Shown piece after piece: positions 36,570 through 44,799 of a DNA stretch of 64,000 nt. Each line of letters begins with the position of its first letter. The stretch's first letter is position 1. A model generated the notes under the pieces. The model had not been told where the DNA came from and ran no database searches. It saw only the letters and a program-made list of their open reading frames with translations. The position numbers and the translations under genes are program-made. Source of the DNA: a bacterium (GTDB taxonomy: Bacteria > Actinomycetota > Acidimicrobiia > Acidimicrobiales > Bin134); NCBI GenBank assembly GCA_026708015.1, contig JAPOVT010000048.1, positions 132,112-196,111 on the forward strand. The letters are read 5' to 3'.

Positions 36570-37877
36570 TCAAGCCGCGCCGAGTAGCAGGGGTTCTCGT
36601 GACCCGAGCGTTCCGGGTGGGGGTTTGTTGTGGTATCCGGTTTGGCAGCAGCTATCGGGGTCGGGGCTGAAGGGGTCGGGATCGAGCATGGGTTGGAGTT
36701 CGTATTTCCCGGTGTAGGAGCACTTCACGACTGCCCAGTTTCGGTCGTGGATGTCGTGGTGGCAGGCGGTGCAGACCAAAACGAGGTTGTCCAGGTCGGT
36801 GGGGCCGCCTTGTTGCCAGGAGACGATGTGGTGGGCTTCGCACCACACGGCGGATTTGCCGCAGCCGACGCAGTGCTTATCGCGGATTATGAGGGCGGCC
36901 CGCTGAGCTTCGGTGGCCGAGCGGGCTTTGCGGCCCACATCGAGGGTCTGGAACTTCGTGTCGAACACGCTGGGAAGCAAGTCGGCGTCGCAGGCCAGCC
37001 TCAGCGTTTCTGCTTTCGTCAGCGGGGTTCCGTCGAGCAGGCGGGCATCGGCCATCTGCTGGCTGATCTGGTCCCAGCTGGCGGTCAGGATCAGCTTGGT
37101 GCCCTGCGGGCGCCGGTTCTCGGCCTCGGCGCAGACTAGGTGTTCGAGGGCATCGGCCATCCGCTGGCCGAATGTGGATTCTGTGGCGCCGTCTTGCTGG
37201 GTTCGGATTCTGCGCTCCTGAGCGGCTAGCGCGGCCTCGATCCTGTTGCCTGCCTCGGGGTCGAAACGTCCGTACACGTCGTACATGCCATCTTGCGGCG
37301 ACTTGCGGATGCCGAAGTTGCGCTTTTGGAGTTGCCGGTCTCTCAATGACCTGCCGCCGTCGGAGGCTTGTTCGGTTTGGTGGTCGCGCACCGTTCGGGT
37401 GAACTGCCCGAAGTCTTCGGTCTTGGCCGCCTCGACCAGCGCGGTTTCGTCCACCGGTCCTTCAGAGGCGGCTCGGGCGATCAGCTTGGCATGATCAGCG
37501 GGTATTTCACCGGCTTGCAGCGCCTCGGCCGTCTCGGCTGCTTTGGATAGCCGTTCCGCGTCCATTAGCTCTTTGCGGGCTTGGCTGTTGGATGCGCCCA
37601 GGGTCTCCACGGCGGCTTGGCGAGCCGCACCTTGGCCCGATCGCTCAGACAGCGCCAACAGCGTCTTGGCTTTCAAGGCCGAAATAGTCGACTCGGCCTG
37701 GCCCAAATCTACGAGGCGCTGAGACAAATCAGACTCAGACAGCGCCGCCAAATCCACCGCGGGAACGCACACCGCAGCCCCGCACCCAGCGTTCCCGCCG
37801 GCCGCAGCTCTACTGCTGTTGCCCCTGGTAGATGGCCCTAAATCCATGCATGTAATCTTACACCCCACCAGTGACAA
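36570..37877 (-). CDS. DUF222 domain HNH endonuclease (13E12-repeat-type protein), copy A
   Basis: C-terminal HNH motif CVGCGKSAVWCEAHHIVSWQQGGPTDLDNLVLVCTACHHDIH, with an N-terminal DUF222-like region. Paralog of 50433..51704. The start is uncertain, with an alternative ATG at 37847. Confidence 0.85.
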   Translation of the reverse strand: MSLVGCKITCMDLGPSTRGNSSRAAAGGNAGCGAAVCVPAVDLAALSESDLSQRLVDLGQAESTISALKAKTLLALSERSGQGAARQAAVETLGASNSQARKELMDAERLSKAAETAEALQAGEIPADHAKLIARAASEGPVDETALVEAAKTEDFGQFTRTVRDHQTEQASDGGRSLRDRQLQKRNFGIRKSPQDGMYDVYGRFDPEAGNRIEAALAAQERRIRTQQDGATESTFGQRMADALEHLVCAEAENRRPQGTKLILTASWDQISQQMADARLLDGTPLTKAETLRLACDADLLPSVFDTKFQTLDVGRKARSATEAQRAALIIRDKHCVGCGKSAVWCEAHHIVSWQQGGPTDLDNLVLVCTACHHDIHDRNWAVVKCSYTGKYELQPMLDPDPFSPDPDSCCQTGYHNKPPPGTLGSREPLLLGAA

Positions 37878-37956
37878 CTACCCCCTGATTAAGCCCATCC
37901 TGCCGCACTTTTCAAAGAAAATTTGGATATTTCCCTTGGAAGGCTGGCCAGCGGAA

Positions 37957-38649
37957 CTAGGTGGATGGGGGCAGTGAGGGTGGGAGGCTGTTGACGATTC
38001 GGGCGGTCTCGACGGAGAGGTGGATGAGGCGGCGGAGGTGTCGGATGAGGTTGAAGGGTTCGTCGGCCCAGGCGTGCCATCCGTTGGGATCGTCAGTGAT
38101 GCCGCTGGGCTTGTCGTGCTTGTGGCGGAGGCTGTCGATGGCCCAGTCGAGCGGTGTGCGGCCCGACACGGTGTATTCGTGAGCCTCCTCAGGAATGTCG
38201 ATGAGCAGGCAGCGAGGGTTGATCTCCAACGTTGAGCGGTCGGTCTCCTTGCCTTGTTTGGCCCACCGCATCTTCGTCTCGATGCGGTAGGCGGCGGGGT
38301 CGGCTTCGCCCTCGTCGGGCTGGCCGTCCACCAGGCAGACCACGGGGTGCTCGTCGACAGTCTCATAGTTGACGTGCAGGTCCATGAGCGCCCGTCCCGC
38401 GGCCCTAAACGCCTCGAAGTCGGGGGCGAGGGGCACCCTGGGCAGGTTGCGCTGGAGGTCGTGCTTGTACCGCTCCCGCCAGTCGGGTGCGTGCATCACC
38501 CCATAGAGGTACTCCCAGATGTCGTCTTTGGTGATGTGGCTGCCGTAGCGGGCATGGAACTGCTCCAGGCACCAGTCGGTGATGTTGTCAGTGTCGGCGG
38601 GTTCCGGGCTGGGCAGGCTGAGGCCAAGGGTGGGGGCGTTGTCGGTCAT
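37957..38649 (-). CDS. Type ISP restriction-modification enzyme, detached C-terminal (target-recognition) domain fragment
   Basis: NITDWCLEQFHARYG..DIWEYLYGVMHAPDWRERYKHDLQRNLPRVPLAPDFEAFRAAGRALMDLHVNYE resembles the Type ISP C-terminal domain (PF18135, from memory). It is in the same frame as the large ORF but separated from it by stops. Confidence 0.75.
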   Translation of the reverse strand: MTDNAPTLGLSLPSPEPADTDNITDWCLEQFHARYGSHITKDDIWEYLYGVMHAPDWRERYKHDLQRNLPRVPLAPDFEAFRAAGRALMDLHVNYETVDEHPVVCLVDGQPDEGEADPAAYRIETKMRWAKQGKETDRSTLEINPRCLLIDIPEEAHEYTVSGRTPLDWAIDSLRHKHDKPSGITDDPNGWHAWADEPFNLIRHLRRLIHLSVETARIVNSLPPSLPPST

Positions 38650-39255
38650 TTGCGTCGGGGGATGACTCGGTTTGCGGGATCAACAGCGTGCAGGTCGGAC
38701 AGCAGGCCTGTGGCCAATGCCGCGAACCTGGTGCGGTTCGACGGGCTGCTCAACAGGATCGCCTCTGTTTGGGCATTGCCCGGGTTTGCTGGCCCGGCCC
38801 CATCAAGTGCAGGTCGGGCAGCGATCCCGTCGCCAGCACCCCGAAGATCGCCATATTCGACGGCCCCGCTATCAAGACTGCATTCCATCTCTGGTCCGCC
38901 TTGGGATGATCCTGCATCCTCCATCGAGTGTGTTGAGGTCGCTGATTGGCTTGGCTGAGAGGACCGAGAATCTTGTCCGGCTGGACGGACTGCTGACCAT
39001 GATGGGGGGGTCATCGCACTCGGCGGGGGAGTGCCCTTGTCTGCCTCGACCCCGAGATCATGGCCAGATCGGGCAGCGTTGCTGTGGCCAGTGCTTGGAA
39101 GGTCATGTTGGAAGTTCCCGAGATCAAGATTGTCTCCGTCGGGGGACGGCTCGGGTGGGTTGGTTGGTTCCGTTGGCGCTGAGATCCATTGGGCAGTTGC
39201 TGGCGATTGCCCCGAAAATTGCCCTGTTGTTGGGTGAGGCGATGAGGATGGTGTT
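38646..39255 (-). repeat. Array of five tandem diverged copies of a ~40-codon coding module, each in a different frame from its neighbour
   Basis: Module starts lie at 39249, 39130, 39003, 38878 and 38759 (spacings 119/127/125/119 nt). Stops lie at 39124, 39011, 38872, 38750 and 38646. Consensus: ILIxSPSNxxxFxxLATxxLPDLxxxxxxxxRxxPRR. Confidence 0.85.
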
Positions 39256-42200
39256 CTCTCTCTCTCTCTCTCTCTCTCTCGGGAACATGGCGGAGACGGT
39301 CTTGACGGAGGAAAGGATGCGGGGGTCCTCATAGAGCCAGAGTTTGGTGAACGGGCGGTAGAGCACTTCGCGGATGCGGGACTCGTCGAAAACGATCTCC
39401 TCGTTCTTGCGGAGCGACTGCTTGAGGGTGTCGGTCCACTTGATCGAGTCGAGTTCAACGTTTTCGGTGACATCAGCCAGGGACTCGCCCAATTCGTAGA
39501 GCATTCGAGCCTCTTCGTAGGAGTCGATGAGTTGCTCCACGCGACGGATCAGCTCTTGTCTGCTGAACGAGTAGACGTAGACGTCGCAGTTCGTCGCTAG
39601 CCCCAAGGCATGGTCCTTGATTGCGGTGTCTTCTCTTCGGCCTCTGGAACCGATTGCACAAACCGACACCAGTTCGCTGAAGGTTCCGTCGGTGAGGTTT
39701 ACCCAGTCGTGGCCCTGGTTGATGGGGACGGTCTGGAACTGGTCGCTGGTCACATTGTCGAGGGTGGCGAGCCAGTCGAGCTTCTGAGGGAGCTTGCTGT
39801 ATTCGGGAACTGTTGCGTAGTGCAGGGTGGCTGGCTCGTTTGGGTCTTTTTCGGGGTTGCGGACGAGCACGGTGATCTGTACGCCGTTGCGGGAGCCAGC
39901 GCCAAAGATCTTGTCGCCCTCACGCCTGAACTCATCGCCCGATTTCATGGCGTCGCCCAGCAGGTTGACTACGTAGATGTCGGTGAATTCGTCGCGCAGT
40001 GAGGCCCTCATACCGGCGAGCGATGTGCCGTTGGACAGTGAGTTGGGGTGGATGAAGGCCAACACCTTGCCGGAGTCTTGCTGGCTGACTGCATTGGCCA
40101 ATCGGTCGGAGGCCCATCGGATGGCCTCCACGTAGAGATTGCCAGAGGACTTGCCGGCACCGCGCCCGGTGATCTGCTTGTGCCGCTTTCCGTAGGTGTC
40201 GCGTACGCGTTCTTCGATATGGCCGTATTCAAGGTTGGGGTTGTCGTCGCCAGCGGACTTTTGGCCGGCGGACCAAGGAGGATTGCCCACGATCACTTGG
40301 ATTGGCGCCTTGTTCTGGCGCTTGGCTCGGTCGGAGTTCTCGGCCATGTATTGGTCGAGGCCGAGCTGTTGGTGCATTTTCTCGTCGTCCATGAGAAACG
40401 TGTCGGTGAGCACGATGCCTTCGAACGGCGTGTAGCCGTGGACGCCATCGAACGCGCCTCTCTCGTCGGCAGCTTCTTCGATTTTCAGGGCGGCGATGTA
40501 GTAGGCGAGCAAGACGATCTCGTTGGCGTGCAGTTCGGTGGTGTATTTGCGGAGCAGATCATCGCTGCGGATCAGGTACTCGCCGTTGGCGCCCTTCAAG
40601 GTGAGCAAGCGGTTGATGAAGGTGCCGGTGCCGGTGAAGGGGTCGAGCACGTGAACATCTTCGGCGGTGAGGCCTTTTCCGAATTCTTGGCGGCACACCG
40701 CGTCTACAGAGCGCAGCACGAAGTCGACCAATTCCACGGGTGTGTACACGATGCCGAGCCGCTTCACGGTGGCGGCCATGGCCGCTTGGAAAAAGCCGTC
40801 GTACACCTCGCGAAGAACGTCGAGTTTCTGGGCGCCGGTAAGCGCGCCCTCGAAGGCATCGGCCATGCGGGCGTAAGCCCGAGTGAGGGGTCGTCGCTCG
40901 TGCTCAAAGGCGATGTTTTTGGCGGCGAATTCGTCCAGGAGCCGGTTGATCTGCTGCGAGACGGGGTTTTGGGTGGCGAATTGCGACCGCTCGAAGAAGG
41001 CGTCGAAGACCGGGATGGTCACAACGTGTTGAGCCACCATCTCTTGGGCATCGGCATCGGTGATCTGCGGACCTACCGTGCGCCGCATTGAGGTGGTGAA
41101 TCGGTCGAATGCGGTGGCGAGTTCGGGGAACTCCAGCAGCACTGCCTGCACTCGTCGCTGGACCTTCACACAAACGTCAGCGGCCATCTTTCCCCAGTGG
41201 GGCCACATCTGGCGGTCGCCGCAGACGTCTACCAGCTTGGAGGCGATCTTGTCGTCGAGGGCCATCTGAAGCTGGACGGCCTCGCCCACGCCTGTGCTGG
41301 TCTCGGTTTCGTCGTCGGCCTCCGGGGGGCTTGTGCTCTTGGTGCGATCGAGTACTCGTATGGGAGCCTTCTGCTTGGCCACCTCGACGTTGTTTACCCA
41401 AAAGTTGACTCGCTCGTCGTGCGACCGCAGCGCCCGGACTACGTCCCACACCACTTTGAAGTCGCTGCCGTTCAACACCGACTCAGAGGAAATGGTCTCG
41501 TCATCGGCCACGACCACCGGAATGACCACGTAGCCGCGTCTTTTGCCGGGCGCGGTTCGCATCGCTCGACCCACCGCCTGGGTGATGTCGATCTTGGAGG
41601 TGCGCCGGTCCAAGAAGATGACGGCATCGAGAGCGGGCACATCAACGCCTTCGGTGAGGACTCGGGCATTCGTCACCACTCGGCACAGGCGGGGGTCGGC
41701 GTTCGGGTCGCTGCGGTGGTCTCTGAGGGCGCTGATGTGCATGTGGCGGGTGACAGCCGCGGTGGAGCCGTCAACGTGCTGCACGTCGAGCTGGAGGTAC
41801 TCGCGGCCGCGGTCTTCCTCTCCCACGTTCTCGACCACCTTCGGCCACATCTCGGCGGTGAGCTGCGACGCCTTGACCCTGTTGGTGAAGGCGATGGCAG
41901 TGCGCGCGTGGGTGTCGTTGGCCATGTCGATCTGTCCGGTGTGGCGGTTGCCGCCCGCGCTGACCGTAAGCGGGTCGGCTAGGGCATCCCAGCAGCCGGC
42001 CAGTTTCACGTAGTCGTCGAAGGCGAGTCCCGTATCGGCGTGGCTTATCTCGGAGTCGGACTCGTAGGTGCGGCGCAGGTCGCGGTCGGAAACCGCGATG
42101 ACCACCACCTCGTAATCCGAAAGCCAGCCGCTGTCGACAGCCTCTGCGAACTCCATGTTGTAGAGCACGGGGCCGTACACCGTCTCGTCGTCCATCGAGA

Positions 42201-43401
42201 AGCTGTCGACTTCATTGGCCTCGGCCTTCTGCTTGGCCTTCTCGGTGAACACCCGTGGAGTGGCGGTCATATAGAGCCGGCGGTGCCCCCTCACATGGTT
42301 GTTGTCGTGAACCATACGGAAACCGGATTTGTCTTCGCCGGTGTTCTGTTCGAACTTGGCGGATTCGACGCCGGTTGTGCGATGGGCTTCATCGCAGATG
42401 ATGAGATCGAATTCAGCGGCGCCCTGCTCTTGGTTCTCTGCGACCTTGGGGAGGGATTGGTAGGTGCAGAACACCACGGCCATGACTTCGGGATCGGCAA
42501 GACGATCGAGTTCTGGGCGGAGCCTGGCGGAATCGGTGGTTACCGGCATGGCCAGCTCGGTGAGGTCGTCGGCAAGGTCGGCCTTCTTGGCGGAGCGGCG
42601 ACCAGAAGTGGGATCGGAGCAAACCCCGAGATAGCGGTGGCGGAGCGACTTCTGCGCGGCCCACTCGCGCATCGTCTGACCCATCAGGGCAATCGAGGGC
42701 ACCACACACAGCACCCGCCCGCCTTTGCCGGCCAGCTTCTCGGCGATCCACAGCGCCACCACTGACTTGCCGGTGCCACAGGGCAGGACCATCTGGCCCC
42801 GGCTGTCGGAATTGTTGAGGCCTTCTACAACCGCCCGCACAGCATCGTGTTGATAGGGGCGCGGCGCGTATCTTTTCGCATTGAATTCGAGGGCCCCAGG
42901 CCGGTCGAGGAAGTCCTCCCAGCGAACATCCCAACCGTTGATGGTGCTCCGGTCGAGCACTTCGCAGCGCGGCGTGGCCTTCTCGATCTTTCGCCAAGCG
43001 TTGTCGGTCAGTCCGCCGGTGGCCACCAGCAGACGGGCGGAAAAGTCGTCGGTGCCCGACTCCGCCAAGAACGAGTCCACCGCGCTGGTGGGAACCGTGG
43101 AGGTGTCCTCGTACGCCTTGCACTGGATAGCGCACAGCCCGCCGCCGAAGTCGTCGCTCTGCTCGGCAACCAGATCGATGCCGCAATCTGGGCCGAACCC
43201 CCTTTTGCGGCGATCGGGCCACTCCGACCAGCGCCAAACCTTCTCGAAGCGAGTCTCCCCGTACTCCCCAGGGTGCTTTTGCAGCGCCTCGGCTATCAGG
43301 CGCTCAAACAATTGACCCCGAAGCTGGGGCTTGTCTGGCCCCCGCTCCTTCAAAAGGGTGATTACATCCCGATGGCTACCTGGGGGGGGGGGGGGGGTCA
43401 T
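39124..43401 (-). CDS. Type ISP-like restriction-modification enzyme (Mrr-like nuclease, SF2 helicase-like ATPase, gamma-class N6-adenine methyltransferase), truncated before the C-terminal domain
   Basis: PD-(D/E)xK-like GIDLVAE..AIQCK. Helicase motifs PCGTGKS, DEAH (IICDEAHRTTG), TATP and QAVGRAMR. Methylase motifs DPFTGTGTF and NPPW (VGNPPWSAGQ). The start was chosen at ATG 43401 (MTPPPPPGSHRD). Confidence 0.88.
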   Translation of the reverse strand: MTPPPPPGSHRDVITLLKERGPDKPQLRGQLFERLIAEALQKHPGEYGETRFEKVWRWSEWPDRRKRGFGPDCGIDLVAEQSDDFGGGLCAIQCKAYEDTSTVPTSAVDSFLAESGTDDFSARLLVATGGLTDNAWRKIEKATPRCEVLDRSTINGWDVRWEDFLDRPGALEFNAKRYAPRPYQHDAVRAVVEGLNNSDSRGQMVLPCGTGKSVVALWIAEKLAGKGGRVLCVVPSIALMGQTMREWAAQKSLRHRYLGVCSDPTSGRRSAKKADLADDLTELAMPVTTDSARLRPELDRLADPEVMAVVFCTYQSLPKVAENQEQGAAEFDLIICDEAHRTTGVESAKFEQNTGEDKSGFRMVHDNNHVRGHRRLYMTATPRVFTEKAKQKAEANEVDSFSMDDETVYGPVLYNMEFAEAVDSGWLSDYEVVVIAVSDRDLRRTYESDSEISHADTGLAFDDYVKLAGCWDALADPLTVSAGGNRHTGQIDMANDTHARTAIAFTNRVKASQLTAEMWPKVVENVGEEDRGREYLQLDVQHVDGSTAAVTRHMHISALRDHRSDPNADPRLCRVVTNARVLTEGVDVPALDAVIFLDRRTSKIDITQAVGRAMRTAPGKRRGYVVIPVVVADDETISSESVLNGSDFKVVWDVVRALRSHDERVNFWVNNVEVAKQKAPIRVLDRTKSTSPPEADDETETSTGVGEAVQLQMALDDKIASKLVDVCGDRQMWPHWGKMAADVCVKVQRRVQAVLLEFPELATAFDRFTTSMRRTVGPQITDADAQEMVAQHVVTIPVFDAFFERSQFATQNPVSQQINRLLDEFAAKNIAFEHERRPLTRAYARMADAFEGALTGAQKLDVLREVYDGFFQAAMAATVKRLGIVYTPVELVDFVLRSVDAVCRQEFGKGLTAEDVHVLDPFTGTGTFINRLLTLKGANGEYLIRSDDLLRKYTTELHANEIVLLAYYIAALKIEEAADERGAFDGVHGYTPFEGIVLTDTFLMDDEKMHQQLGLDQYMAENSDRAKRQNKAPIQVIVGNPPWSAGQKSAGDDNPNLEYGHIEERVRDTYGKRHKQITGRGAGKSSGNLYVEAIRWASDRLANAVSQQDSGKVLAFIHPNSLSNGTSLAGMRASLRDEFTDIYVVNLLGDAMKSGDEFRREGDKIFGAGSRNGVQITVLVRNPEKDPNEPATLHYATVPEYSKLPQKLDWLATLDNVTSDQFQTVPINQGHDWVNLTDGTFSELVSVCAIGSRGRREDTAIKDHALGLATNCDVYVYSFSRQELIRRVEQLIDSYEEARMLYELGESLADVTENVELDSIKWTDTLKQSLRKNEEIVFDESRIREVLYRPFTKLWLYEDPRILSSVKTVSAMFPRERERERENTILIASPNNRAIFGAIASNCPMDLSANGTNQPTRAVPRRRQS
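39255..39280 (-). repeat. (GA)13 dinucleotide microsatellite inside the Type ISP CDS, encoding RERERERE
   Basis: Thirteen consecutive TC units counted on the plus strand from 39255 to 39280, immediately 5' of module 1. Confidence 0.95.
43382..43397 (-). repeat. C16 homopolymer (G16 on the plus strand) in codons 2-7 of the Type ISP gene
   Basis: Sixteen G counted from 43382 to 43397. The minus strand reads ATG ACC CCC CCC CCC CCC CCA. Confidence 0.9.
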
Positions 43402-43659: not shown

Positions 43660-44799
43660 TCAAACGCCCCAGATGTGGAACAGGTCGGGGGTGGCGAACC
43701 AGTGGCGGGTGCGGCCGGGGGTGGAGGTCGGTACGTCGATGGGGGACAGGATGGCGCGGGAGGCGAGCGCAGACAGGGCGGTGCGGGCGCTGCGCTCGCT
43801 GGTGCCGAGCAGATCGGCGACGTCGCCTGCACTCAACAGCGGGTGGGCGGGCAGATAGGAGAGCAGCGCTCGTGCCGAGTGGTCGGCTCGCAGATCGGCG
43901 ACTGCCTCTTCCCATTGAGCTAGTAGCGCGCTGGTTTGATCGATGATCTGGTGGGTGGTGGAAGCAGCCCTTTGAGCGGTTTCGGCGAACCACTTGACCC
44001 ACGGTTCGAGGGTTCCCTGTTCGTAGAGTCGGAGGCCGGATAGGTAGCCGCCGGGGTCACGGACGATGGCCATGCTGACGGGGACGGTGGATCGAACGGT
44101 GGTCTCTCGCCGTCGCAGGGTTCGGCTGATCAGCGCCCGTCCGAGGCGACCGTTGCCGTCGCCGTAGGGGTGGATGGCCTCGAACTGGGCGTGGATCACC
44201 GCCGCGTGGGAGACCGGGTCGAGGTCTTCGGGGGTGGCGTTGGCGAAGGCGATCAGGTCGTCGATCAGCCGCGGTATCTCCGCGGGCGGCGGGGGGACGT
44301 AGGCCGCGTCGAGAGGGGAGCTGCCGCCCACCCAGCCCATCGCGGGGCGGAACACTCCGACCATGTCGGGGGGAAGATTCCCATGCTGCATGAGCTGTCG
44401 ATGCCATCGGTGCAGCGCGTCGACGGTCAGTGGCTCATGGGCGGTTTCCAAAGCCCGGTCGATCACTACCAGGTTGGCGGCCACCCAGCCCGCGGTGCCG
44501 CCCGCGCTGGTTCGCTCCGCAATCAGCACGGATTCGATGGGCTCGCGCAGCCCCTCGATGCCCGAGGATGCCACTCCCTCGTTGCGCAGTAGGAGCCTGG
44601 CCATAGCTTCCCAACGGTCGGGCAGCCGGGCGTCGGCGAGCCGCAAGGCAGCGCAGGCCCGCTCGCTGGCCCGTGCAGCAGAGGCGGACAGCTCCATGGG
44701 GCGCTCTCGAAGAAGAGCCGGGACCCACGCTTGGACCGGTCGGCCATTCCAGTCGATCTCAACCGAAAATCCCGAATAGCCTTCCGAATCTGCGGCCAT
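43660..44799 (-). CDS. Fic family protein (AMPylase-type) with an N-terminal inhibitory motif and a C-terminal wHTH-like tail
   Basis: Fic motif HPYGDGNGRLGR. SSGIEG matches the (S/T)xxxE(G/N) auto-inhibition motif. The stop lies 28 nt from the tRNA-Gln 3' end. Confidence 0.88.
   Translation of the reverse strand: MAADSEGYSGFSVEIDWNGRPVQAWVPALLRERPMELSASAARASERACAALRLADARLPDRWEAMARLLLRNEGVASSGIEGLREPIESVLIAERTSAGGTAGWVAANLVVIDRALETAHEPLTVDALHRWHRQLMQHGNLPPDMVGVFRPAMGWVGGSSPLDAAYVPPPPAEIPRLIDDLIAFANATPEDLDPVSHAAVIHAQFEAIHPYGDGNGRLGRALISRTLRRRETTVRSTVPVSMAIVRDPGGYLSGLRLYEQGTLEPWVKWFAETAQRAASTTHQIIDQTSALLAQWEEAVADLRADHSARALLSYLPAHPLLSAGDVADLLGTSERSARTALSALASRAILSPIDVPTSTPGRTRHWFATPDLFHIWGV

Follow-up and report, generated by a model that had tools for sequence, protein, structure and literature searches.

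How can a restriction-modification (R-M) gene encode a working enzyme when one part of its recognition domain is present as several divergent tandem copies, each closed by its own stop codon, and the rest of the domain lies in a separate reading frame? This question is raised by a Type ISP R-M locus on the minus strand of a 64,000-nucleotide (nt) stretch of the contig JAPOVT010000048.1 from a sponge-symbiont bacterium (assembly GCA_026708015.1, positions 132,112 to 196,111; Acidimicrobiia, Acidimicrobiales). The whole of this stretch is called the window here, and the pieces of the locus are hypothetical proteins in its public annotation. The best explanation was found, with good probability, to be a selector in which the lengths of simple repeats would set the reading frame and thereby choose which of several alternative base-reading modules ends the protein.

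The main open reading frame (ORF) of the locus was found to contain an Mrr nuclease, a superfamily 2 (SF2) helicase, a coupler and an N6-adenine methyltransferase. These are followed by the first part of the recognition domain, through Loop V, and by a single module. The N-terminal nuclease, which is a mark of Type ISP enzymes, matched Pfam Mrr_cat_2 at residues 51-165 of the main ORF (E = 1.2e-24). The helicase and coupler of the class were recognized by matches to ResIII (8e-24), DEAD (1e-9), Helicase_C (3.6e-7) and ISP_coupler (4.2e-24), and a DEAH motif was present in the translation. The gamma-class methyltransferase was recognized by the motif GNPPW and by alignment of this region with the methyltransferase regions of LlaGI and DrdV, the Pfam N6_Mtase match being marginal (20.1 bits, with a cut-off of 20.4). 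All catalytic domains were intact as judged with Pfam and PADLOC, and the closest solved structures were LlaGI (5FFJ, E = 3.5e-73), DrdV and LlaBIII.

LlaGI and LlaBIII (PDB 5FFJ and 4XQK; PMC4872093) have the same order of Mrr nuclease, SF2 helicase, coupler, gamma-class methyltransferase and recognition domain. Unlike the window locus, they consist of one polypeptide with a single hairpin and Loop VI and without repeats. A Type ISP enzyme carries its whole target recognition domain in one polypeptide, and in the window this domain was split over two ORFs. The Type_ISP_C profile of Pfam (342 positions) was matched at positions 4-151 in the main ORF and at positions 166-341 in a separate ORF of 230 amino acids (aa), referred to below as the C-terminal ORF. 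Likewise, the PADLOC profile PDLC03597 (1646 positions) was matched at 22-1393 in the main ORF and at 1428-1636 in the small ORF. This division of both profiles indicates that the two ORFs plus one module correspond to one canonical Type ISP enzyme.

When the window was scanned for simple repeats and the region 37800-40000 was analyzed with Tandem Repeats Finder, three simple repeats of at least 7 nt, C16, (GA)13 and C7, were found to fall in this gene. C16 and (GA)13 are the two longest simple repeats of the entire 64-kb window (65.5% guanine plus cytosine), and since both lie in this gene, the (GA)13 tract is not a chance feature. A long non-triplet repeat inside the coding sequence is a mark of contingency loci, and it was found here in C16, (GA)13 and C7. 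The (GA)13 tract, which reads TC on the plus strand, was the sole array reported by Tandem Repeats Finder between 37800 and 40000. The module array was not detected in that region by the same program, the copies being too divergent, and only with a protein profile built from the modules could the copies be recognized. In frame with the main ORF the tract is translated as RERERERE (...SAMFP-RERERERE-NTILIASPNN...), and in the LlaGI alignment these residues fall in the short loop that joins Loop V of the recognition domain to its beta-hairpin.

An earlier note on this DNA, made by reading the letters and their ORFs, had placed the (GA)13 tract in frame directly 5' of module 1. It had described the sequenced frame as ending in module 1 at 39124, a second frame as passing through ...HPSRPPT into module 2 and stopping at 39011, and a third, an ORF of 275 aa, as crossing the whole array, reading module 5 and stopping at 38646 in an ATGA overlap with the C-terminal ORF. 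All of this was reproduced. The position and phase of the tract were recovered with Tandem Repeats Finder and by translation, which also returned the module 1 ending. The second frame was found open from the tract by translation of 39500 to 38560 and was entered in silico with (GA)12 or (GA)15. The third frame was present in the ORF list and was entered in silico with (GA)11 or (GA)14, and the stop of module 5 overlaps the ATG at 38649-38647 of the 230-aa C-terminal ORF. The further proposal of that note, that slippage chooses among alternative C-terminal modules, agreed with every computed test, but the selector was found to be five-way rather than three-way owing to the C7 tract, length changes of which opened modules 3 and 4 in silico. 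When the two tracts were edited over a grid of (GA)10-16 by C5-9, each combination brought one, and only one, of the five modules to the end of the protein (Table 1). Between the FP motif and the module, the linker measured 6-10 aa when module 1 was in frame and 48-173 aa with modules 2-5 in frame.

Table 1. Coordinates of the features of the locus in the window, with the tract lengths that bring each module into frame and the length of the protein that results
Feature	Coordinates	Strand	Tract lengths	Protein length (aa)	Remarks
Main ORF	39124..43401	minus		1425	start ATG 43401; ends in module 1
C16, ON/OFF tract	43382..43397	minus			directly after ATG 43401; reads MTPPPPPG
(GA)13, proposed first frame selector	39255..39280	minus			Tandem Repeats Finder: period 2, 13.0 copies, 100% matches
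C7, proposed second frame selector	39004..39010	minus			between modules 2 and 3; repeat scan and in silico editing
Module 1	39127..39255	minus	(GA)10, 13 or 16; any (C)n	1423-1427	in frame as sequenced; ends ...TILIASPNNRAIFGAIASNCPMDLSANGTNQPTRAVPRRR; stop TGA 39126-39124; module hidden Markov model 77 bits
Module 2, TILISGTSNMTFQALATATLPDLAMISGSRQTRALPRR	39014..39136	minus	(GA)12 or 15; any (C)n	1462-1464	stop TGA 39013-39011
Module 3, PIMVSSPSSRTRFSVLSAKPISDLNTLDGGCRIIPRR	38887..39009	minus	(GA)11 or 14; C5 or C8	1507-1510	stop TGA 38874-38872
Module 4, AVLIAGPSNMAIFGVLATGSLPDLHLMGPGQQTRAMPKQR	38756..38884	minus	(GA)11 or 14; C6 or C9	1548-1551	stop TGA 38752-38750
Module 5, AILLSSPSNRTRFAALATGLLSDLHAVDPANRVIPRRK	38649..38765	minus	(GA)11 or 14; C7	1583-1585	stop TGA 38648-38646
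Pass-through frame, ORF	38646..39473	minus		275	open over the full array (ORF list and translation)
C-terminal ORF	37957..38649	minus		230	rest of recognition-domain core and guide subdomain (Pfam, PADLOC)
Fic-domain gene	43660-44799	minus			upstream of the locus
DUF222/HNH endonuclease gene	36570-37877	minus			downstream of the locus

The modules were then placed on the structure of LlaGI, for which the construct index plus 164 gives the full-length numbering (checked against N1327, R1329, H1368 and G1372 as named in the LlaGI paper). In this numbering, the window sequence ILSSVKTV aligned with Loop V (1324-1331) and RERERERE with the short loop 1337-1341. Module 1 aligned from approximately 1342 (about 1342-1372) and included the Loop VI residues H1368 and G1372. 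A module is therefore a unit of approximately 40 residues comprising the beta-hairpin 1347-1358 and Loop VI 1365-1374, in which the residue after the invariant D-L aligns with H1368 and the following loop aligns with G1372/Q1373. The base pair at position +3 of the target is read by H1368, G1372 and Q1373 in LlaGI and by N1360 in LlaBIII (Kulkarni et al. 2016, PMC4872093).

At the position of H1368, modules 1 to 5 of the window carry S, A, N, H and H, respectively, and H, C, A, N, S or K occurs there over all modules. In a profile built from 281 modules, D23, L24 and R34 were invariant and variability was highest at columns 19-20 and 25-30, which correspond to Loop VI. Within an array the loop signatures were all distinct (157/157), and approximately nine module (Loop VI) types recurred between genomes in differing orders. 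These findings show that the alternative elements are paralogues of one another and share homology with the hairpin and Loop VI of LlaGI, a segment of the recognition domain that reads bases.

A scan of one genome per species gave 79 related loci, which are labelled here with L numbers. They came mostly from sponge-associated Acidimicrobiia, many of them on complete chromosomes, and one came from a Caldilineaceae genome. When the three forward frames of these loci were searched with the module profile, approximately 56 homologous arrays in related Acidimicrobiia genomes were found to share the layout, mostly with 3, 5 or 7 modules in rotating frames. A simple repeat was present just 5' of the first module in nearly every array, with more repeats inside the arrays. 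At the site of the first tract, the relatives carried (GA)8-33, (AC)10-16, (CAGC)14, (ACCCG)6, (CCGA)9-21 or poly-C/poly-G of 9-27 nt, and heptamer repeats were also found among the array tracts. The long array tracts all had units of 1, 2, 4, 5 or 7 nt and none had a unit of three; trinucleotide repeats occurred in the arrays with only 3-4 units, at background density. The site of the C7 tract held C9-C17 in relatives and C12-C15 in sister strains. Depending on the genome, the main ORF was in frame with module 1, 2, 3, 4, 5 or 7.

Two modules came after an internal tract in 48/59 cases and three after a terminal tract in 42/53 cases, and two modules per internal tract plus three for the last tract give the observed counts of 3, 5 and 7. 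The frame of the second module was open from the tract in 100/100 arrays, compared to 27-40% of control off-frames in the same genes (120-nt windows). The frame of the third module was open from the tract in 42/44 cases and the pass-through frame was open from one tract to the next in 47/48 cases, compared in both instances to 10-23% of control off-frames in the same genes (240-nt windows). In 93% of modules, a stop codon came no more than 30 nt after the end of the module. These frame and grouping statistics show that each tract offers two terminal choices and one pass-through and that the last tract offers three terminal choices, a scheme which can be seen plainly by direct reading of L012. 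The alternative frames first noticed in the window are thus open in homologous loci as well. The Corynebacterium relatives (approximately 40% identity) had a canonical fused gene with one module and no repeats.

The tract at the 5' end of the gene, C16, is a standard ON/OFF phase switch of the whole gene. With C16, in silico editing gave the 1425-aa ORF, and with C14, C15, C17 or C18 it gave products of 7-13 aa. Poly-C of 10-19 nt was found at the same position in eight close relatives (L005, L007, L010-L014 and L018), and other clades carried poly-G in mid-gene.

The modules that are out of frame in a given genome were found to be maintained as protein sequence. In 39 independent pairs of out-of-frame modules (1356 codons), the ratio of nonsynonymous to synonymous substitution rates (dN/dS) was 0.154 in the module's own frame compared to 1.48 and 3.2 in the shifted frames. 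The median profile score was 59.5 bits for out-of-frame modules compared to 57 bits for in-frame modules. The dN/dS pattern indicates that the modules are under selection at the protein level and that the pass-through readings are constrained only to lack stops.

The mechanism that we propose for this locus is as follows. The Loop V region of the main ORF is followed by a tract of non-triplet units, and the tandem divergent copies of hairpin and Loop VI behind it each lie in a different frame, with a stop just after the copy. Of the three frames leaving a tract, two enter a module and stop, and the third continues to the next tract. The last tract would pick among three modules, so that k tracts would give 2k+1 choices, that is, five for (GA)13 and C7. 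Earlier modules would be crossed out of frame and would form an unconstrained linker of 48-173 aa in a surface loop, and the proteins with long linkers would presumably be active. The rest of the domain, made as a separate polypeptide from the C-terminal ORF, would presumably assemble with whichever N-terminal protein is produced, and the C16 tract after the start codon would turn the whole gene on or off. Slippage would be expected to occur at a high rate within a clone, and a switch of module should change the base read at approximately target position +3, altering the specificity of methylation and restriction.

Tract lengths were compared in syntenic loci from other samples, which were found via proteins in the same 90% cluster as the C-terminal ORF of the window. 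L082 and L085 carried (GA)12 and C15, and L083, L084 and L086 carried (GA)9 and C12. L087 and L088, which are on shorter contigs that end before the GA tract, carried C12. There was no other difference between L082 and L083 over 5.7 kb, the rows looking identical over the 1.1-kb array alignment, and both tract versions read into module 4, which was the module in frame in sister strains L082-L086 and L094. L093 and L094 differed only in three CAGC units and in C13 versus C12, and their terminal modules were 5 and 4, respectively. The metagenome contigs L101 and L102 were identical over 4731 bp except for G11 versus G12, which placed the third and the first module in frame, respectively. Tract length is therefore not invariant across related sequences but differs in three otherwise identical pairs, as is expected of contingency loci, and the terminal module differed in two of the three tract-only pairs. 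The window clade was found in module 1, module 4 and module 5 states, and the (GA)9/C12 form recurred in assemblies of several different runs. As a separate observation, the metagenome contigs L097, L098, L106, L110 and L112 start exactly at a repeat tract, which is a typical assembler outcome for heterogeneous or hard-to-read tracts.

The polymorphism of the tracts bears on the possibility that the frame is chosen mainly during expression, by slippage of RNA polymerase or of the ribosome, so that one genotype would give a mixture of enzymes and not heritable variants. Long tracts of such kind can cause slippage in transcription, and the tracts of these loci are long, reaching 27 nt for poly-C/poly-G and 33 units for (GA). 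Slippage in expression would also explain why the path frames are kept open, and it would avoid sudden, complete changes of specificity. However, otherwise identical sequences differ in the length of the tract in the DNA and hence in the module in frame, different genomes are in different states, and the 5' C16 makes sense only as an ON/OFF switch at the DNA level. Expression as the main site of frame choice was thus judged to be unlikely, and slippage at the DNA level and slippage at the expression level are not mutually exclusive.

The array itself was found to be variable among close relatives. Modules 1-3 (38887-39255) were strongly diverged between the window and the sister strains L082-L088 and L093/L094, and the flanks, modules 4-5 and the C-terminal ORF were nearly identical. 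The first tract was (CAGC)n in L093/L094 and (GA)n in the window and L082. The diverged modules 1-3 and the different repeat units indicate that modules and repeat units turn over quickly. L090 and L091 were found to differ by 331 nt, corresponding to two modules, bounded by the direct repeat ATCCCGCGGCGG (the IPRR module end), which suggests that arrays grow and shrink by recombination between module ends; L090 has a run of N at this place, so that the difference may be an assembly artefact.

These observations could also be taken to mean that the repeats serve only for ON/OFF switching and that the downstream modules are silent cassettes moved by recombination or gene conversion, as in pilS or vls. 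The divergence of modules 1-3 amid near-identical flanks points to module exchange, the repeat-bounded indel of L090/L091 would be a further case, and the recurrence of the same module types in different orders across genomes fits as well. Silent cassettes, however, need neither open path frames (100/100, 42/44 and 47/48) nor a stop after each module, and they need neither internal tracts nor a grouping in twos and threes. Moreover, the modules within an array are only 65-72% identical at the DNA level, too little to recombine well by homology, the locus is not flanked by a recombinase gene, and the indel may be artefactual given the run of N in L090. We consider silent cassettes to be quite unlikely as an alternative to the repeat-length selector. 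Recombination probably reshapes the arrays over evolutionary time, without explaining their frame logic.

A shufflon operated by a recombinase was also rejected. The modules are all in direct orientation, and a repeat search returned only weak inverted repeats (seven pairs of 14-24 nt, 71-87% complementary), unlike the long ones on which shufflons rely. No recombinase gene was found among the neighbours of the locus, the flanking genes being Fic and DUF222/HNH.

The C-terminal ORF was examined as the second component of the enzyme. It had 489 homologues at E≤1e-10, and the best 120 of these were all 205-336 aa long, indicating that a detached C-terminal ORF is usual in this clade. The protein is predicted to fold by itself: its AlphaFold2 model was confident (predicted local distance difference test score 83.9, predicted template modelling score 0.79, residues 1-18 disordered), and Foldseek matched it to DrdV, LlaGI and LlaBIII in their C-terminal parts alone (E about 1e-10). 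The earlier note had called this ORF the detached specificity domain, and it does carry the rest of the recognition domain; it is not the sole specificity element, however, as Loop VI is carried by the modules.

It had further been proposed that the module 5 frame alone is positioned to couple to translation of the C-terminal ORF. The stop of module 5 is the only one that the C-terminal ORF overlaps in the window, and the start of the C-terminal ORF overlaps the stop of the last module in 14/36 relatives as well. Judging from the arrangement in relatives, though, the coupling is probably not essential, since many of them provide the C-terminal ORF with a ribosome-binding site of its own and 14 loci have the C-terminal ORF upstream of the main gene. 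In at least 12 relatives a stop precedes the C-terminal ORF, and a Shine-Dalgarno motif (GGAGG or AGGAG) is found at the usual distance from its start. The 14 permuted loci (L034, L036, L043, L044, L047, L049, L053, L057, L058, L060, L062, L064, L065 and L077) have the order C-terminal ORF, main ORF, repeat and array, with no C-terminal ORF 3' of the array, and this upstream placement indicates that the C-terminal part is an independent subunit. The selector would then come at the cost of a split domain; no single frame can join the remaining part to all of the modules, and this part would therefore be supplied in trans.

Several side observations concern the same ORF. L057 has two permuted systems in tandem. 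C-terminal ORF homologues, up to 95% identical, occur in L008, L015, L022, L026, L038, L054 and L089 without an adjoining module array, and poly-G of 10-15 nt is located about 120 nt upstream of the C-terminal ORF in L028, L035 and L039.

Other ways of using the module junctions were tried and rejected. In the window, all four module stops considered overlap a possible start codon (TTGA three times and ATGA once). The idea that ribosomes terminate and restart at each module until they reach the C-terminal ORF was nevertheless unsupported, the junction types being about equal in number across relatives (ATGA 41, TTGA 40, CTGA 37 and GTGA 37). Where the C-terminal ORF has no ribosome-binding site of its own, CTGA junctions were also not avoided (Fisher p=0.14, with the trend opposite to that expected). 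A -1 shift of the ribosome from one module into the next was dismissed, as an X_XXY_YYZ heptamer preceded the stop in 6/281 junctions compared to 3/281 at a control position. The modules do not appear to be independent small proteins, about a quarter of them being without a start codon at the junction.

Switching might be real and yet leave the recognized sequence unchanged, the modules providing either a varied surface against phage anti-restriction proteins or active and inactive forms of one enzyme. Coupling to the C-terminal ORF exists in the window for the module 5 frame alone, and the other states might lack their partner and be inactive. Against this, the variable columns of the modules are those of Loop VI, which makes the base contacts at +3 in LlaGI and LlaBIII, and two of the residues found at the key column, H and N, are those with which these two enzymes recognize G and A. 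In addition, translation of the C-terminal ORF does not depend on the module frame in many relatives, and the clade of the window occurs naturally in the module 1, module 4 and module 5 states. An unchanged specificity was therefore considered very unlikely. That the region is a pseudogene in decay, or an artefact of assembling repeated sequence, is hardly credible and was rejected, for although the gene taken alone looks broken, with tandem partial duplications, stops, a detached 3' fragment and an annotation as hypothetical proteins, the window sequence is identical in an independent Logan assembly, the layout occurs in dozens of species including complete long chromosomes, the silent modules have a dN/dS of 0.15, the frame statistics are far from the controls and the catalytic domains are intact.

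Several points weigh against the repeat-length selector itself. The proteins ending in modules 2-5 would carry 48-173 unselected residues inside the recognition domain, and a change of specificity in an enzyme that cuts DNA risks endangering the host chromosome by self-restriction. The C7 tract of the window is short and probably much less mutable than the longer tracts elsewhere, so that modules 3 and 4 should be reached rarely. The C-terminal ORF of the window has no recognizable ribosome-binding site and overlaps only the module 5 stop, and the selector does not account for its translation in the sequenced module 1 state. Finally, some of the polymorphic pairs may be two assemblies of one sample, as with the L093 and L094 contigs (lengths 27101 and 27088), and homopolymer lengths are error-prone in short-read assemblies.

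The proposed selector was compared with known systems. Phase-variable R-M genes (Type III mod, Type I hsdM/hsdS and Campylobacter Type IIG genes) have, as here, a non-triplet hypermutable repeat in the coding sequence. Their switches are ON/OFF or between full-length and truncated proteins, whereas here the out-of-frame readings would be productive, each with its own module. In Type I hsdS shufflons (pneumococcal SpnD39III/ivr and Mycoplasma pulmonis hsd), inverted repeats and a recombinase swap whole recognition domains. The present locus resembles these in having several recognition elements in one locus and, presumably, a stochastic and reversible switch. In contrast to them, it would use slippage and reading frame, its modules are in direct orientation, and only a loop module of 40 residues would be exchanged.

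The closest likeness was found in the Type IIG enzymes JHP1272 (Hpy99XIV) and HP1353-HP1354 (HpyAXVI) of Helicobacter pylori, in which a first homopolymer is an on/off switch (Krebes et al. 2014, PMC3936762). A second homopolymer adds a small domain resembling part of the recognition domain, and methylome sequencing showed that the specificity shifts, for example from GGWTAA to GGWCNA (PMC3936762). Both systems have two tiers of tracts, one for ON/OFF (C16 in the window) and one that changes a recognition element ((GA)13 and C7). The H. pylori switch changes specificity at one or two positions through an alternative copy of a recognition sub-module. However, the H. pylori enzymes have two states only. 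Their additional module follows a domain that is already complete and presumably takes the place of the resident part, an arrangement which was not found in the window. In contrast, the locus described here has mutually exclusive modules in rotating frames, a hierarchy of tracts, 3, 5 or 7 states and a recognition domain divided over two genes. The H. pylori enzymes are also MmeI-like without a helicase, whereas the scaffold here is that of Type ISP enzymes.

In Helicobacter canadensis, homopolymeric tracts near the 3' ends of genes are described as changing the C-terminal sequence rather than switching the gene off (PMC2823697), and the alternative ends are not known to be paralogous functional modules in a selector layout such as the one found here. 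Full-text literature searches and a recent review gave no description of the multi-way selector layout, the two-state case of H. pylori being the closest, which accords with the initial impression that a multi-way frame selector had not been described.

Taken over all the loci, we lean towards the view that sponge-associated Acidimicrobiia and at least one member of the Chloroflexota have a decision tree written in reading frames, in which hypermutable repeats route one R-M gene into 3, 5 or 7 loops, and which is enabled by an additional ON/OFF tract and a split recognition domain. Known repeat switches are ON/OFF or have two states, and known multi-state switches need recombinases. If the proposal is right, many enzyme specificities would be held in one gene by repeat slippage and the three reading frames alone, and one locus would provide a heritable and reversible repertoire of DNA specificities without a recombinase. 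The layout would explain hundreds of apparently fragmented symbiont restriction genes that are annotated as hypothetical fragments, and it would suggest that defence, or epigenetic state, diversifies rapidly in sponge microbiomes. The natural set of modules would amount to a ready-made code relating Loop VI sequence to recognized base; with approximately nine Loop VI types on a constant scaffold, such a long-sought loop-to-base code could become testable and could aid the engineering of restriction enzymes.

Two loci each were found on OZ242356.1 (L003 and L004), OZ242339.1 (L007 and L059), OZ220687.1 (L021 and L046) and OY282367.1 (L044 and L058). In genomes with two or more loci, the combined states per cell would multiply if each locus switches independently. 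L060, on the Caldilineaceae chromosome OY729430.1 (Chloroflexota), has the same array and poly-G layout and a C-terminal ORF 70% identical to that of the window, which suggests transfer between phyla. Adjacent to the locus in the window, the downstream HNH gene and the glutamyl/glutaminyl-tRNA synthetase-like gene next to it were found to be syntenic in the sister strains.

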